This document shows positions 7,604 to 15,068 of a stretch of DNA of 35,657 nt, one piece after another; the first letter of the stretch is position 1; each line of letters begins with the position of its first letter. A model generated the notes under the pieces. It saw only the letters and a list, made by a program, of their open reading frames with translations. It was not told the DNA's origin and searched no databases. This DNA is from a virus (taxonomy: Duplodnaviria > Heunggongvirae > Uroviricota > Caudoviricetes), in IMG/VR virus record IMGVR_UViG_2534681762_000014; one strand, given 5' to 3'. Position numbers and translations under genes: made by a program.

Positions 7604-8932
7604 CTGATGAATCCCCTAATGATTTTTATCAAAATCATTAAGTTAAGGTAGATACACATCTTGTCATATGATCAAATGGTTTCGCCAAAAATCAATAATC
7701 AGACAACAAGATGTGCGAACTCGATATTTTACACGACTCTCTTTACCAATTCTGCCCCGAATTACACTTAAAACGACTCAACAGCTTAACGTTGGCTTGC
7801 CACGCATTACTTGACTGTAAAACTCTCACTCTTACCGAACTTGGCCGTAACCTGCCAACCAAAGCGAGAACAAAACATAACATCAAACGAATCGACCGAT
7901 TGTTAGGTAATCGTCACCTCCACAAAGAGCGACTCGCTGTATACCGTTGGCATGCTAGCTTTATCTGTTCGGGCAATACGATGCCCATTGTACTTGTTGA
8001 CTGGTCTGATATTCGTGAGCAAAAACGACTTATGGTATTGCGAGCTTCAGTCGCACTACACGGTCGTTCTGTTACTCTTTATGAGAAAGCGTTCCCGCTT
8101 TCAGAGCAATGTTCAAAGAAAGCTCATGACCAATTTCTAGCCGACCTTGCGAGCATTCTACCGAGTAACACCACACCGCTCATTGTCAGTGATGCTGGCT
8201 TTAAAGTGCCATGGTATAAATCCGTTGAGAAGCTGGGTTGGTACTGGTTAAGTCGAGTAAGAGGAAAAGTACAATATGCAGACCTAGGAGCGGAAAACTG
8301 GAAACCTATCAGCAACTTACATGATATGTCATCTAGTCACTCAAAGACTTTAGGCTATAAGAGGCTGACTAAAAGCAATCCAATCTCATGCCAAATTCTA
8401 TTGTATAAATCTCGCTCTAAAGGCCGAAAAAATCAGCGCTCGACACGGACTCATTGTCACCACCCGTCACCTAAAATCTACTCAGCGTCGGCAAAGGAGC
8501 CATGGGTTCTAGCAACTAACTTACCTGTTGAAATTCGAACACCCAAACAACTTGTTAATATCTATTCGAAGCGAATGCAGATTGAAGAAACCTTCCGAGA
8601 CTTGAAAAGTCCTGCCTACGGACTAGGCCTACGCCATAGCCGAACGAGCAGCTCAGAGCGTTTTGATATCATGCTGCTAATCGCCCTGATGCTTCAACTA
8701 ACATGTTGGCTTGCGGGCGTTCATGCTCAGAAACAAGGTTGGGACAAGCACTTCCAGGCTAACACAGTCAGAAATCGAAACGTACTCTCAACAGTTCGCT
8801 TAGGCATGGAAGTTTTGCGGCATTCTGGCTACACAATAACAAGGGAAGACTTACTCGTGGCTGCAACCCTACTAGCTCAAAATTTATTCACACATGGTTA
8901 CGCTTTGGGGAAATTATGAGGGGATCTCTCAG
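7604..8932 (+). mobile_element. IS10 (IS4 family), complete 1329-bp copy
   Basis: Outside end CTGATGAATCCCCTAATGATTTT at 7604 and inside end ...GGGGATCTCTCAG at 8932; length exactly 1329 bp; encodes the 402-aa IS10 transposase. Confidence 0.9.
7711..8919 (+). CDS. tnp: IS10 transposase, 402 aa
   Basis: Translation recognised as Tn10/IS10 transposase (MCELDILHDSLYQF...HGYALGKL). Confidence 0.9.
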   Translation: MCELDILHDSLYQFCPELHLKRLNSLTLACHALLDCKTLTLTELGRNLPTKARTKHNIKRIDRLLGNRHLHKERLAVYRWHASFICSGNTMPIVLVDWSDIREQKRLMVLRASVALHGRSVTLYEKAFPLSEQCSKKAHDQFLADLASILPSNTTPLIVSDAGFKVPWYKSVEKLGWYWLSRVRGKVQYADLGAENWKPISNLHDMSSSHSKTLGYKRLTKSNPISCQILLYKSRSKGRKNQRSTRTHCHHPSPKIYSASAKEPWVLATNLPVEIRTPKQLVNIYSKRMQIEETFRDLKSPAYGLGLRHSRTSSSERFDIMLLIALMLQLTCWLAGVHAQKQGWDKHFQANTVRNRNVLSTVRLGMEVLRHSGYTITREDLLVAATLLAQNLFTHGYALGKL

Positions 8933-9381: not shown

Positions 9382-9875
9382 TCAGTCGTTGTCAGTGTCC
9401 AGTGAGTAGTTTTTAAAGCGGATGACCTCCTGACCGAGCCAGCCGTTTATCTCTCGGATCCTGTCCTGTAACGGGATAAGCTCATTGCGGACAAAGACCT
9501 TTGCCACTTTCTCAATATCACCCAGCGACCCGACGTTCTCCGGCTTGCCGCCCATCAACTGAAAGGGGATGCGGTGTGCGTCCAGCAGGTCAGCGGCGCT
9601 GGCTTTTTTGATATTAAAAAAATCGTCCTTCGTTGCCACTTCACTGAGTGGGATAATTTTAATGCCGTCAGCTTTCCCCTGCGGGGCATAGAGAAACAGG
9701 TTTTTAAAGTTGTTGCGGCCTTTCGACTTCACCATGTTTTCGCGAAGCATTTCGATATCGTTGCGATCCTGCACGGCATCGGTGACGTACATGATATATC
9801 CGGCATGTGCGCCATTTTCGTAATACTTGCGGCGGAACAGCGTGGCCGACTCATTCAGCCAGGCAGAGTTAAGGG
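9382..9875 (-). pseudogene. Q: Portal protein Q, C-terminal fragment (gene split by IS66-family insertion)
   Basis: Translation continues the portal sequence (...NSAWLNESATLFRRKYY...) from the fragment at 12575-13123; the apparent Met at 9886-9888 lies inside the IS. Confidence 0.8.
9868..9875. repeat. IS66-family target-site duplication, left copy (GTTAAGGG)
   Basis: Same 8-mer at 12575-12582, flanking the element. Confidence 0.75.
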
Positions 9876-9928
9876 GTAACCGGCTCATTTAAACCGTCTG
9901 GTCTGTTTCCTCCGGCTCTACAAAAATA

Positions 9929-10606
9929 ATGTCCATCATTTTTAATGGACACTATCGTATGAAACACCGGACCTGGATCACTGAAGCTTTACGTCTTCAC
10001 TTTGAAGAACATTTACCCCGGGTTGTGGCCGGGCGTCGCCTGGGTGTACCAAAATCAACAGTTTGTAGTATGTTCGTGCGCTTTCGGAGAGCTGGCCTTT
10101 CGTGGCCTTTGCCCGCAGGCATGTCGGAGCAGGAACTTGATGCCTGCCTTTACGGACAATTTTCCACGGTACCAGTCGTACGTCCTGAAAGCACCGTTAT
10201 ATCCGAAGCCCCCGTGGTAAAAAAACGTCCCCGGCGGCCCAACTTCCCTTATGAGTTTAAAATCGCCTTAGTGGAGCAGTCACTGCAGCCCGGAGCCTGT
10301 GTGGCGCAGATCGCCCGGGAAAACGGAATCAACGATAACCTGCTCTTCAACTGGCGCCATCAATACCGGAAAGGTGGCCTGCTGCCTTCCGGAAAAAATA
10401 TGCCGGCACTGCTTCCCGTGACGTTAACGCCGGAGCCGGATAATAAAATCCCGGCCCCCGCACAGGAACCAGAGCAGATAAATACACCGTCCGACAGTCT
10501 GTGTTGTGAGCTGGTTCTGCCGGCCGGAACTCTCAGGCTTAAAGGTAAACTGACGCCGGCGTTATTACAGACACTTATCCGCGAAATAAAAGGGAGCAGC
10601 CACTGA
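9929..10606 (+). CDS. tnpA: IS66-family accessory protein TnpA (orf1), with an N-terminal HTH-like extension
   Basis: Contains the IS66 orf1 signature (PNFPYEFKIALVEQSLQPGACVAQIARENGINDNLLFNWR); true start may be the downstream Met at 9959. Confidence 0.7.
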   Translation: MSIIFNGHYRMKHRTWITEALRLHFEEHLPRVVAGRRLGVPKSTVCSMFVRFRRAGLSWPLPAGMSEQELDACLYGQFSTVPVVRPESTVISEAPVVKKRPRRPNFPYEFKIALVEQSLQPGACVAQIARENGINDNLLFNWRHQYRKGGLLPSGKNMPALLPVTLTPEPDNKIPAPAQEPEQINTPSDSLCCELVLPAGTLRLKGKLTPALLQTLIREIKGSSH

Positions 10607-10953
10607 TGATATCTCTCCCTGCAGGTTCGCGTATCTGGCTGGTTGCAGGTATCACCGATATGCGAAATGGCTTTAACGGCCTGGCATCAAAAGTTCAGAA
10701 CGTCCTGAAGGATGACCCGTTCTCCGGACACCTGTTCATCTTCCGCGGACGCCGGGGTGACCAGATAAAAGTGTTGTGGGCTGACAGTGACGGACTGTGC
10801 CTCTTCACCAAACGCCTGGAGCGGGGCCGCTTCGTCTGGCCAGTCACCCGTGACGGCAAGGTGCACCTTACTCCGGCTCAGTTATCCATGCTTCTTGAAG
10901 GTATCAACTGGAAGCACCCGAAACGAACGGAACGCGCTGGAATCCGCATATAA
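10606..10953 (+). CDS. tnpB: IS66-family TnpB (orf2), 115 aa
   Basis: Characteristic size and sequence; overlapping stop/start with orf1. Confidence 0.8.
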   Translation: MISLPAGSRIWLVAGITDMRNGFNGLASKVQNVLKDDPFSGHLFIFRGRRGDQIKVLWADSDGLCLFTKRLERGRFVWPVTRDGKVHLTPAQLSMLLEGINWKHPKRTERAGIRI

Positions 10954-10972
10954 CCCGTTGTAAAGTGAGGAT

Positions 10973-12544
10973 ATGGACACCTCACTTGCTCATGAGAACG
11001 CCCGCCTGCGGGCACTGTTGCAGACGCAACAGGACACCATACGCCAGATGGCTGAATACAACCGCCTGCTCTCACAGCGGGTGGCGGCTTATGCTTCCGA
11101 AATCAACCGGCTGAAGGCGCTGGTTGCGAAACTGCAACGTATGCAGTTCGGTAAAAGCTCAGAAAAACTTCGTGCAAAAACCGAACGGCAGATACAGGAA
11201 GCACAGGAGCGAATCAGCGCACTTCAGGAAGAAATGGCGGAAACGCTGGGTGAGCAATATGACCCGGTACTGCCATCCGCCCTGCGCCAGTCTTCAGCCC
11301 GTAAACCGTTACCGGCCTCACTTCCCCGTGAAACCCGGGTTATCCGGCCGGAAGAGGAATGCTGTCCTGCCTGTGGTGGTGAACTCAGTTCTCTGGGATG
11401 TGATGTGTCAGAGCAACTGGAGCTTATCAGCAGCGCCTTTAAGGTTATCGAAACACAACGTCCGAAACTGGCCTGTTGTCGGTGCGACCATATCGTGCAG
11501 GCACCAGTACCTTCAAAACCCATTGCACGCAGTTATGCCGGAGCGGGGCTCCTGGCCCATGTCGTCACCGGAAAATATGCAGACCATCTGCCGTTATACC
11601 GCCAGTCAGAGATATACCGCCGTCAGGGTGTGGAGCTGAGCCGTGCCACACTGGGGCGCTGGACAGGTGCCGTTGCTGAACTACTGGAGCCGCTGTATGA
11701 CGTCCTGCGCCAGTATGTGCTGATGCCCGGTAAAGTCCATGCTGATGATATCCCCGTCCCGGTCCAGGAGCCGGGCAGCGGTAAAACCCGGACAGCCCGG
11801 CTGTGGGTCTACGTCCGTGATGACCGTAACGCCGGTTCACAGATGCCCCCGGCGGTCTGGTTCGCGTACAGTCCGGACCGGAAAGGTATCCATCCACAAA
11901 ATCACCTGGCCGGTTACAGCGGTGTGCTTCAGGCCGATGCTTACGGTGGTTACCGGGCGTTATACGAATCCGGCAGAATAACGGAAGCCGCGTGTATGGC
12001 TCATGCCCGGAGAAAAATCCACGATGTGCATGCAAGAGCGCCCACCTACATCACCACGGAAGCCCTGCAGCGTATCGGTGAACTGTATGCCATCGAGGCA
12101 GAGGTCCGGTGCTGTTCAGCAGAACAGCGTCTGGCGGCAAGAAAAGCCAGAGCCGCGCCACTGATGCAGTCACTGTATGACTGGATACAGCAACAGATGA
12201 AAACACTGTCGCGTCACTCAGATACGGCAAAAGCGTTCGCATACCTGCTGAAACAGTGGGATGCACTGAACGTGTACTGCAGTAATGGCTGGGTGGAAAT
12301 CGACAACAACATCGCAGAGAACGCCTTACGGGGAGTGGCCGTAGGCCGGAAAAACTGGATGTTCGCGGGTTCCGACAGCGGTGGTGAACATGCGGCGGTG
12401 TTGTACTCGCTGATCGGCACATGCCGTCTGAACAATGTGGAGCCAGAAAAGTGGCTGCGTTACGTCATTGAACATATCCAGGACTGGCCGGCAAACCGGG
12501 TACGCGATCTGTTGCCCTGGAAAGTTGATCTGAGCTCTCAGTAA
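10973..12544 (+). CDS. tnpC: IS66-family transposase TnpC, 523 aa
   Basis: Characteristic size; N-terminal coiled coil, CxxC-type zinc-finger region, DDE core. Confidence 0.85.
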
Positions 12545-12574
12545 ATATCAATACGGTTCTGACGAGTCGCTTAC

Positions 12575-12582
12575 GTTAAGGG
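12575..12582. repeat. IS66-family target-site duplication, right copy (GTTAAGGG)
   Basis: Exact match to 9868-9875. Confidence 0.75.
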
Positions 12583-13123
12583 CGCTGAGATATTCCGGCA
12601 GGCCGTACAGCTCCTGATTAATATCCGGCTCCAGCAGGTGAAACACGGAGCCGGGTGCGAAGGCTGTCGGCTCGTTGAAGGACGGCACCCACCAGTAAAC
12701 ATCCTCCTCCACACCACGGCGGGTATATTTTGCCGGTGAGGTTTCCAGTCTGATGACCTTACCGGTGGTGCTGTAACGCTTTTCCAGAAACGCATTACCG
12801 AACACCAGAAAATCCAGCACAAAGCGGCTGAAATCCTGCTGGGAAAGCCACGGGTGCGGAATAAACGTTGAAGCCAGAATATTACGTTTGACGTAAATCG
12901 GTGAGCTGTGATGCACGGCAGCACGCAGGCTTTTTGCCAGACCGGTAAAGCTGACCGGTGGCTCATACCATCTGCCGTTACTGATGCACTCGACGTAATC
13001 CAGAATGTCACGGCGGTCGAGTACCGGCACCGGCTCACCAAAGGTGAATGCCTCCATTTTTGGGGCACTGGCAGTCATTTTTTTTGCCGCAGGTTGCGGT
13101 GTTTTCCCTTTTTTCTTGCTCAT
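12575..13123 (-). pseudogene. Q: Portal protein Q, N-terminal fragment
   Basis: Starts MSKKKGKTPQPAAKKMTA...; the last 9 codons of the listed ORF (to 12548) are IS-derived. Confidence 0.8.
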
Positions 13124-14895
13124 CAGTAAAACTCCAGAATGGTGGATGTCAGCGGGGTGCTGATACCGGCGGTGAGTGGCTCATTTAACAGGGCGTGCAT
13201 GGTCGCCCAGGCGAGGTCGGCGTGGCTGGCTTCCTCGCTGCGGCTGGCCTCATAGGTGGCGCTGCGTCCGCTGCTGGTCATGGTCTTGCGGATAGCCATA
13301 AACGAGCTGGTGATGTCGGTGGCGCTGACGTCATATTCCAGACAGCCACGACGGATAACGTCTTTTGCCTTGAGCACCATTGCGGTTTTCATTTCCGGTG
13401 TGTAGCGGATATCGCGCGCGGCGGGATAGAACGAGCGCACGAGCTGGAACACGCCGACACCGAGGCCGGTGGCATCAATACCGATGTATTCGACGTTGTA
13501 TTTTTCGGTGAGTTTGCGGATGGATTCAGCCTGGGTGGCAAAGTCCATGCCTTTCCACTGGTGACGCTCAAGTATTCTGAATTTGCCACCGGCCACCACC
13601 GGCGGTGCCAGCACCACGCATCCGGCACTGTCGCCACGGTGTGACGGGTCGTAACCAATCCAGACCGGGCGGGAGCCGAACGGATTCGCGGCAAACGGCG
13701 CATAGTCTTCCCATTCTTCCAGCGTGTCGACCATGCAGCGTTGCAGCTCCTCGAACGGGAATACCGACGCCTTGTCGTCAACAAATTCACACATGAACAG
13801 GTTTTTAAAATCGTCGGCGCTGTTTTCGCGTTTAAGCTGCTCAATGTCGAACAGCGTGCAGCCACCTTTCAGGGCGTCCTCAATGGTGACAATCTGCCGC
13901 CACTGGCCGTCCGCACAGAGAAGCCCACCGGCAAGGGCGTTATGACTGACGTCGATTTCCACGCGTTCGGCGGCGCTGGCGCGTCCCCGGTTGAACAGTT
14001 CACCCGACCAGAACGGATAGGCGTCGTGCGCCAGCGTGGACGGGGTGGAGAAATAGGTCGAGCGCAGGTGACTCTGTGAGGCCATACCTGATGCCACCTT
14101 ACGCAGTACCTGAAAATTCGGGATCCAGAAAATCTCGTCGACGTACAGGTCACCGTTATGGCTCTGTGCGGTGTTGGAGTTGGTGCCGAGAAAAATCAGT
14201 TTTGCGCCGTTATTGCCCAGGACAATCGGGTCACCGGTCAGGTCAACGTCAACCAGCCGGGCAAAGGCGATGATGTATTCGCGGAACACATACGCCTGCG
14301 TTTTACTGGCCGACAGAAAAATCTGGTTATGACCGGTTTTCAGGGCGCGCAGCAGCGCCTCGCGGGAAAAATAAAACGTTGCGCCAATCTGGCGGGATTT
14401 CAGGATATCGCGGATGCGGTGCTCAAGCCCGGCGCGATACCAGTGCAACTGATATTCGAAAGACTGCTCAAAGAAAATCTGCTCCAGCTTTTCGATGGCC
14501 TCGTCACTGAAAAAATTCTTTTTCGGTTTGCGACGCCCGCCTTTGTTGCGGTTAGCGACGTTCGGATTAAGGTCTGCCTCGTTGCCGGTCTGACTGTAAC
14601 GGTTGACCCGTGCCAGTCGTTCAATCTGGCGTCCGAGCAGGTCAATTTCCTTGAAGTCACCGCCGGTTTTCTGCGGTTTGATGATGAGCTGGGTCAGTCG
14701 CGCTTCCAGACTCATTTCGACACGGCTGATGGGGGCAACGTTGTCCCAGCCGTCGCGCTGTTTCCAGCTCTGCACCGTCGGGCGTTTCATCTGCAACATG
14801 GCGGCAATCTGCGGCACGGAAAACCCCTGCCAGTACAGCAGCGCCGCCTGACGACGCGGGTCGTGTAAAAGAGTGGTGTCTGTGGTGATGGTCAT
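13123..14895 (-). CDS. P: Terminase large (ATPase) subunit
   Basis: About 590-aa protein matching P2 gpP size and position; stop overlaps the Q start (ATGA). Confidence 0.85.
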   Translation of the reverse strand: MTITTDTTLLHDPRRQAALLYWQGFSVPQIAAMLQMKRPTVQSWKQRDGWDNVAPISRVEMSLEARLTQLIIKPQKTGGDFKEIDLLGRQIERLARVNRYSQTGNEADLNPNVANRNKGGRRKPKKNFFSDEAIEKLEQIFFEQSFEYQLHWYRAGLEHRIRDILKSRQIGATFYFSREALLRALKTGHNQIFLSASKTQAYVFREYIIAFARLVDVDLTGDPIVLGNNGAKLIFLGTNSNTAQSHNGDLYVDEIFWIPNFQVLRKVASGMASQSHLRSTYFSTPSTLAHDAYPFWSGELFNRGRASAAERVEIDVSHNALAGGLLCADGQWRQIVTIEDALKGGCTLFDIEQLKRENSADDFKNLFMCEFVDDKASVFPFEELQRCMVDTLEEWEDYAPFAANPFGSRPVWIGYDPSHRGDSAGCVVLAPPVVAGGKFRILERHQWKGMDFATQAESIRKLTEKYNVEYIGIDATGLGVGVFQLVRSFYPAARDIRYTPEMKTAMVLKAKDVIRRGCLEYDVSATDITSSFMAIRKTMTSSGRSATYEASRSEEASHADLAWATMHALLNEPLTAGISTPLTSTILEFY

Positions 14896-15068
14896 GAATA
14901 CCTCGCCGTGATGAATACACGGCAAGGCTACTGAGTCGCGACCTGCGATTCGCTAAGGTGCTGTTGTGTCAGTGATAAGCCATCCGGGACTGATGGCGGA
15001 GGATGCGCATCGTCGGGAAACTGATGCCGACATGTGACTCCTCTAATCACTATTCAGGACTCCTGACA

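Follow-up and report, generated by a model that had tools for sequence, protein, structure and literature searches.

In the IS3 family of insertion sequences (ISs), OrfA proteins bind the terminal inverted repeats (IRs) and regulate transposition, and in the IS679/IS66 family tnpA reportedly overlaps tnpB, with a gap of ~20 bp before tnpC. The IS21-family transposase IstA carries at its N-terminus a pair of helix-turn-helix (HTH) domains joined by a linker in the minor groove; in cryo-electron microscopy structures these domains read two conserved halves of each terminal repeat, and HTH-1 makes base-specific contacts with the repeats in the solved IS21 complexes (PMC10122671). Here we analyzed the first gene of an IS66-family element within IMG/VR virus record IMGVR_UViG_2534681762_000014, a 35,657-nucleotide stretch of Caudoviricetes DNA (hereafter the window, to which all coordinates refer unless another locus is named). 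The analysis showed that this 225-codon open reading frame (ORF) is an ordinary and previously catalogued gene, the tnpA of an intact IS66-family insertion sequence of the ISCro1 type, and that the extra N-terminal HTH domain of its product is genuine and standard for the long-form TnpA subgroup. Judged from its sequence, this domain is a homologue of the N-terminal part of the IS21-family transposase IstA.

A long-form TnpA in a catalogued IS66-family element

The element spans 2699 bp (9876–12574), with GTAACCGG... as its left edge and ...CGCTTAC as its right edge, and has the organization of a three-ORF IS66 element, with the gene order tnpA-tnpB-tnpC, an IS66-type TnpB together with a DDE_Tnp_IS66 transposase, a TGATG overlap, a gap of ~20 bp, IRs and an 8-bp target duplication. 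In the overlap (10604–10608), the ATG of tnpB lies across the TGA of tnpA in the −1 frame relative to tnpA, so that tnpA is arranged for translational coupling with tnpB, and 19 nt (10954–10972) separate tnpB from tnpC. The product of tnpC also carries zf-IS66, LZ_Tnp_IS66 and IS66_C domains, and the GTAA(C/G)CG start of the left IR (IRL) is kept in all related elements.

Over its whole length, the element shows 100% identity to a copy on the chromosome of Escherichia coli ETEC-2265; in RefSeq this copy carries the annotations tnpA, tnpB and "IS66-like element ISCro1 family transposase". The name ISCro1 was taken from the RefSeq (PGAP) annotation of such 100%-identical copies, which served as a proxy for the ISfinder reference sequence. 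The translation of the window tnpA (678 nt) equals WP_001339397.1, described in RefSeq as "IS66-like element accessory protein TnpA". By megablast, the element was found in 3018 of the 5426 complete E. coli genomes and was full-length, defined as coverage of at least 80% of the query, in 1487, more than a quarter of them; the consequence of our analysis for annotation is accordingly small. A 2699-bp contig labelled "MAG: Clostridiales bacterium" (SFGJ01000083.1) has the exact length of the element, and the TnpA that it encodes is 100% identical; probably this contig is a collapsed repeat or E. coli DNA assigned to the wrong bin.

An earlier note, made from the window sequence alone, had held that IS66 first ORFs are usually much shorter than this one and that about 90 residues of HTH-like character precede the recognizable core. 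Both statements were borne out. The signature quoted in that note, PNFPYEFKIALVEQS, begins at residue 104 of the 225-aa protein; Pfam HTH_Tnp_1 (PF01527) falls on residues 102–159 (E 8.6e-15), and the short-type NCBIfam TnpA model NF047595, of 113 positions, covers just residues 102–219 (89.5 bits). Whereas a short-form IS66 TnpA of ~113–141 aa consists of the HTH_Tnp_1 core and the C-terminal module alone, ~90 structured residues are added in front of them here. The core HTH (residues 102–159) also matches NF006928 and NF033516, with scores far under the cutoffs of these IS2/IS3 models.

Against NF038385, an equivalog model for the long-form TnpA with 190 positions and a cutoff of 150 bits, the window protein scored 295.8 bits, with residues 13–206 aligned to positions 1–189. 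In two other E. coli IS66 elements the first ORF is short, with 134 aa in one (WP_000839179.1) and 141 aa in the other (ISEc23 family), and the products align from ~residue 93 of the long form, pass NF047595 (~82 bits versus a cutoff of 74) and fail NF038385 (88–98 bits versus 150, over positions 80–189 only). Long forms of 207–229 aa were found in Escherichia, Salmonella, Citrobacter, Pantoea, Erwinia, Yersinia and Klebsiella, as well as in Serratia, Edwardsiella, Xenorhabdus and Photorhabdus, and three distant long forms with less than 50% identity (P0141, P0174 and P0203) also pass NF038385. In Pantoea stewartii ATCC 8199 alone, ~70 long-form TnpA loci of several subtypes (L006–L082) were present, a massive expansion of the IS66 family.

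These data indicate that both forms of TnpA are established, that the HTH_Tnp_1 domain and the C-terminal module are common to all IS66 TnpAs, and that the long form is standard for the ISCro1-type subgroup. The suggestion in the earlier note that the extended ORF marks a variant subfamily was therefore right, but the subfamily had already been recognized and catalogued (WP_001339397.1, NF038385). The idea that the extended ORF departs from reference elements was in effect refuted: RefSeq copies and NF038385 carry it as standard, and RefSeq and NCBIfam already list this gene together with its element and the long-form family.

The extra N-terminal domain and its relation to IstA

Several analyses indicated that the residues in front of the core are translated and constrained. 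The first 100 residues alone match positions 1–83 of NF038385 (residues 13–100, E 2.5e-28). Residues 14–75 are conserved in 28 homologues of 204–238 aa from many enterobacterial genera, with R14, L21, L23, F25, E27, G39, R51, F52, L61, L70 and L74 invariant when sets of 22 and 28 homologues (57–91% identity) were aligned. Comparison of residues 12–78 with eight diverged elements by the Nei-Gojobori method gave a proportion of nonsynonymous differences (pN) of 0.07–0.33; with the seven more diverged of these (~55–65% identity), pN was 0.16–0.33 and the proportion of synonymous differences (pS), which is saturated, was 0.59–0.89. The selection regime of residues 12–78 is the same as that of HTH_Tnp_1, whereas the two linkers are far less constrained, the ratio of nonsynonymous to synonymous substitution rates (dN/dS) being 0.4–0.7 in the linker at residues 79–99 versus ~0.15 in the domains. 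This pattern of substitution argues that residues 12–78 form a real protein domain under purifying selection.

Structure prediction pointed to the same boundaries. In an AlphaFold2 model built with the family alignment, residues 12–78 had a predicted local distance difference test score (pLDDT) of 71–90 and formed helices at residues 17–25, 31–38, 42–54 and 67–75; modelled alone, the domain reached a mean pLDDT of 88.6 and a predicted template modelling score of 0.73. The extra domain is thus predicted to be a three-helix HTH followed by a fourth helix, and weak Pfam matches to HTH_23 and Sigma70_r4 agree with the HTH fold. A second three-helix HTH was predicted at residues 108–147, and the C-terminal part was predicted, at a pLDDT of 55–66, to form strands at residues 192–197 and 200–205 and a helix at residues 210–222. 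Residues 1–11 (pLDDT 39), 79–99 and 154–190 were predicted to be disordered in the full-length model. When the N-terminal domain was compared with the PDB by Foldseek, the structures returned were HTH DNA-binding domains only, namely DeoR/SorC (probability 0.96–0.99, ~2 Å over 45 residues) and sigma-70 region 4. Sequence-profile searches of the PDB with the full-length protein and with the N-terminal domain returned only marginal HTH matches (SorC, E 0.007–0.04) and spurious designed repeat proteins, with no IstA among them.

The linker between the two HTH domains contains an A7 run (GTAAAAAAACG, 10216–10226), with TAA as a stop in the +1 frame. A role for this run in frameshifting or slippage was rejected: it is unconserved, homologues reading VRKR or ARKR at this place, and it is probably meaningless.

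The relation of the extra domain to IstA emerged from a profile search of 1.84 billion representative proteins, in which the N-terminal domain matched 3760 proteins at a threshold of E≤1e-3, among them 200 with E≤1e-10. Besides long-form TnpAs and fragments, the longer matches were IS21 transposases, as identified with NF033546 in eight of the ten scanned, the eight being all those with a transposase body; in these the TnpA-like stretch lies at the extreme N-terminus. One of them, a transpos_IS21 protein of 511 aa (P0193; E 1.9e-13 in the same search), is 44% identical to the TnpA domain over 59 residues (E 4e-15) and shares with it the motif GLSWPLP..M...EL...L(F/Y). The homology provides a domain-level link between the IS21 and IS66 families; in the library searched, no paper on a link between TnpA and IstA and no functional work on IS66 TnpA turned up. 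Four further proteins of 600–780 aa (P0140, P0165, P0169 and P0176) contain six to eight tandem HTH repeats like the N-terminal domain of TnpA and IstA, for example ...VHRLHFDEKLTRNEVSEKLGVSEQTISRIFRDQGW.... Taking the evidence on the gene and its product together, we are fairly confident that tnpA belongs to an intact ISCro1-type IS66 element and encodes a long-form TnpA composed of an IstA-like HTH, a basic linker, HTH_Tnp_1 and a C-terminal module.

Start codon, left-end palindrome and the possible role of the extra domain

A mis-called start, the other explanation offered by the earlier note, probably applies to the first ten codons and not to the domain. Around residue 90 no internal start is available: no ATG lies between codons 66 and 157, and the GTG at Val96 is unconserved among homologues. 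When ten distinct related elements were aligned at their left ends, the codon equivalent to position 9959 (Met11) was instead the only start codon (ATG or GTG) kept in all of them. Single-base indels at three places shift the spacing between the upstream and downstream starts to 29, 31 or 32 nt, which puts the upstream start (equivalent to 9929) out of frame at 72 of the 85 loci, among them ~65 P. stewartii loci; in the L006 type an in-frame TAG separates the two starts. Because 9959 is the sole conserved start, most database homologues are called at 207–215 aa, NF038385 begins at residue 13 and residues 1–11 are predicted to be disordered, the true start of tnpA is probably 9959, giving a 215-aa protein. 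The annotated start would then lie 10 codons too far upstream, and the first ten codons (MSIIFNGHYR) are most likely an over-extension of the annotation across a conserved cis-element. As for the ribosome-binding site that the earlier note had proposed to look for, neither start has a strong Shine-Dalgarno sequence; the sole GGA upstream of 9959 lies in the right arm of the palindrome described below.

DNA conservation peaks directly upstream of the conserved start. Identity among the aligned left ends is 92% over the 33 nt at 9926–9958, compared with 63% over the next 210 nt of coding sequence and 59% over the preceding 9903–9925. This segment contains the palindrome TGTCCAT-N8-ATGGACA (9930–9951), which occurs once in the window, where 0 occurrences are expected, and is nearly unchanged in an element whose TnpA is less than 50% identical (L083, 2970–2992). 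As RNA it could form a hairpin with a 7-bp stem and an 8-nt loop (−8 kcal/mol). The palindrome probably has a cis-regulatory role, as an operator or as an RNA hairpin.

We considered whether the palindrome is specific to long-form elements, which held only in part: short forms keep GGACA-N9-ATG, and no TGTCC...GGACA pattern is present in long-form elements of the L086 type. Direct repeats containing GGAC were observed in two short-form elements, GTGGACAC...GTGGACGC in L084 (2040–2102) and AGACGCCCATCT/AGACGGACATCT in L085 (2040–2082), ending ~9 nt before the start in each. A TTGACA-15 nt-TATAAT arrangement noticed by eye in L006 was set aside and supports no promoter claim, as it falls outside the spacing rule of our promoter scan and is absent from the window copy.

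A sister element in E. coli (L045/L087) was informative about what the extra domain might recognize. This element is 2704 bp long, the length that Han et al. reportedly gave for IS679 in 2001, and it is probably IS679. It has an 8-bp duplication (AAAAGAGC) and a TnpA of 216 aa (WP_000993956.1) that exceeds the NF038385 cutoff with 283.6 bits. The left 476 bp of the element, comprising the left end and the coding region for the TnpA N-terminus, was present over at least 80% of its length in 495 of the 5426 genomes. From ~10,600 onward, over tnpB and tnpC, it is 92–98% identical to the window element per 100-nt block, and the first 26 bp of its IRL are as in the window element apart from one mismatch. 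Identity drops to ~37%, which is unalignable, at ~9937–10225 and recovers gradually through the HTH_Tnp_1 region; alignment is in essence lost over ~9903–10300, a stretch that includes the palindrome and the N-terminal domain. The N-terminal domain encoded there is homologous to that of the window TnpA but only 27% identical, and the palindrome (AATGTCC-N15-GGACATT, 285–309 of L045) has a spacer of 15 nt between TGTCC and GGACA as compared to 12 in the window. Since the two elements differ almost solely in the N-terminal domain and the DNA adjacent to it, they amount to a natural swap experiment for the function of IS66 TnpA. A Citrobacter copy (L005) gave a second sign of the 5′ part of tnpA recombining independently of the remainder, with a synonymous substitution rate (dS) relative to the window of 0.40 in codons 12–78 and 0.0–0.11 elsewhere in tnpA.

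TnpA is a two-HTH protein, and we propose that it may act as a two-headed sequence-specific DNA-binding accessory protein, translationally coupled with TnpB. Its extra N-terminal HTH would recognize the segment with the palindrome, immediately internal to the left end, and, by binding there, would regulate expression of tnpABC, while the C-terminal parts shared with other TnpAs would work with TnpB and TnpC. Variation in the N-terminal HTH goes with variation in the left subterminal segment rather than in the terminal IRs, which makes that segment its most likely target; we put forward only tentatively that the HTH is directed to it, with the palindrome as the candidate site, and thereby controls tnpABC. 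We assign a rather low likelihood to a further step, in which the IstA-like HTH and the adjacent palindrome DNA would constitute an exchangeable regulatory cassette, a repressor head with its operator, derived from or shared with IS21 and swapped between ISCro1 and IS679-like elements. If so, sister elements would have private control of tnpABC while using the same transposition machinery and ends.

A number of observations weigh against parts of this interpretation. The ATG at 9929 is in frame in the window copy, with the frame open to 9959, and a 225-aa form may be translated from it. Foldseek against the PDB gave nothing at E≤0.001 for TnpA, as expected for a 45-residue HTH, so that its matches speak to fold class only, and the solved IstA of IS5376, being too diverged, was undetected by sequence from the TnpA domain. 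A scan for consensus sigma-70 promoters found nothing in the left end of the window element or in L006. Short-form elements also carry GGACA ~9 nt upstream of the start codon, where it is part of direct and not inverted repeats, and the right arm of the palindrome may therefore be a ribosome-binding or 5′ untranslated feature common to the family rather than a target of the extra domain.

One alternative concerns the palindrome, which might fold as an RNA hairpin in read-in transcripts and so mask the weak GGA ribosome-binding site, as is known for IS10 and IS50, and might be unrelated to the N-terminal domain. The stability of the predicted hairpin and the location of the sole upstream GGA in its right arm are consistent with such masking, as is the loop sequence TATAAT in L006 and L048, which would place a −10 element in the loop and leave the left arm out of native transcripts. 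However, the arms are invariant, so the compensatory changes that would support pairing are absent; short-form elements have direct, not inverted, repeats at the same place; and the consensus scan passed no promoter. We regard this alternative as unlikely, if still worth weighing beside the operator reading.

A comparable, rather low likelihood attaches to the alternative that the extra HTH serves transpososome assembly, forming with HTH_Tnp_1 a bipartite unit, like that of IstA or a paired domain, that reads the terminal IRs and delivers TnpC. All three ORFs of IS679 were reported by Han et al. in 2001 to be needed for transposition, and the top fold matches of the full-length protein were double-HTH proteins (DUX4, paired domain and SETMAR). 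By analogy, two HTHs joined by a basic flexible linker could correspond to HTH-1, linker and HTH-2 of IstA (PMC10122671). Nevertheless, the IRs of the ISCro1-type and L045/L087-type elements are nearly identical although their N-terminal domains share just 27% identity, so that the domain does not co-vary with the IRs; moreover, short-form elements transpose without the extra HTH, and the palindrome occurs at the left end only. It is very improbable that the start is so badly mis-called that the true TnpA is short, beginning at ~residue 90 behind a 270-nt untranslated leader that is open by chance, since the alignment of the 134- and 141-aa TnpAs from ~residue 93 and the lack of a strong Shine-Dalgarno sequence at either candidate start are outweighed by purifying selection on residues 12–78 with saturated synonymous sites, the confident predicted fold, the match to NF038385 positions 1–83, the homology to IstA N-termini and the absence of a conserved internal start (no ATG between codons 66 and 157, Val96 GTG unconserved).

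Features of the locus and comparison with known systems

The coordinates of the element and its parts are collected in Table 1.

Table 1. Features of the IS66-family element and of its tnpA gene in the window.
Feature	Positions	Strand	Remarks
Target-site duplication, left copy GTTAAGGG	9868–9875		Identical octamer directly outside both IS ends
IRL GTAACCGGCTCATTTAAACCGTCTGGT	9876–9902	+	Agrees at 18/27 positions with the right end in reverse complement
tnpA ORF, 225 aa	9929–10606	+	ATG start, stop included; translation equals the annotated WP_001339397.1 CDS
Conserved palindrome TGTCCAT-N8-ATGGACA	9930–9951		Between IRL and the conserved tnpA start
Met11 ATG, conserved start	9959–9961	+	Probable true start, giving a 215-aa TnpA
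Extra N-terminal domain, residues 12–78	9962–10162	+	Predicted three-helix HTH plus fourth helix; homologue of the IstA N-terminus by sequence
Linker, residues 79–99	10163–10225	+	Predicted disordered (pLDDT ~40); ends in basic KKRPRR; poorly conserved
Core HTH_Tnp_1, residues 102–159	10232–10405	+	Common to short-form TnpAs
C-terminal module, residues 191–225	10499–10603	+	Predicted beta-hairpin plus helix; conserved; common to short-form TnpAs
tnpB, 115 aa	10606–10953	+	PF05717 E 4.7e-40; NF033819 above cutoff
tnpC, IS66-family DDE transposase, 523 aa	10973–12544	+	PF03050 E 3.8e-103; NF033517 above cutoff
Right IR (IRR)	12548–12574	−	Starts GTAAGCG; IRL starts GTAACCG
Target-site duplication, right copy GTTAAGGG	12575–12582		8 bp

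The element splits the portal gene of a P2-like prophage, encoded on the − strand, with positions 1–157 of TIGR01540 matched in an ORF at 12548–13123 and positions 158–318 in an ORF at 9382–9888. A prophage with a portal gene split in this way is presumably unable to package. Adjoining the split portal gene is a 600-aa ORF (13123–14925, − strand) with no NCBIfam match at E≤1e-5, whose conserved position and sequence suggest a P2-type large terminase. Within 1 kb of the ISCro1 copy there is another IS, which encodes a 402-aa IS4-family transposase (7711–8919, + strand; NF033591, E 4e-121); judged by eye, its sequence is that of IS10.

Compared with known systems, the window element is closest to ISCro1 as annotated in RefSeq E. 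coli copies, from which it has the same 2699 bp at 100% identity and the same tnpA, tnpB and transposase, the insertion site being the sole detectable difference. The IS679-like sister shares its gene organization, 8-bp duplication and long-form TnpA, but there the left subterminal segment and the N-terminal domain of TnpA are replaced by a diverged version. Short-form IS66 TnpAs of the NF047595 type (134–141 aa) have the same HTH_Tnp_1 core, INDNLLF(N/K)W motif, C-terminal hairpin/helix module and overlap of the tnpA stop with the tnpB start, and, unlike the window TnpA, are entirely without the N-terminal IstA-like HTH. The OrfA proteins of the IS3 family and the IS2 repressor TnpA are likewise small HTH_Tnp_1 proteins encoded first in their elements, although the window tnpA lacks a programmed frameshift fusion to the transposase. 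Finally, IS21 IstA resembles TnpA in that it begins with a small HTH, to which a flexible linker joins a second HTH; in contrast to IstA, the domain in TnpA resides on a small accessory protein rather than on a DDE transposase, and the second HTH of TnpA, unlike HTH-2 of IstA, is of the IS3 OrfA type (HTH_Tnp_1).

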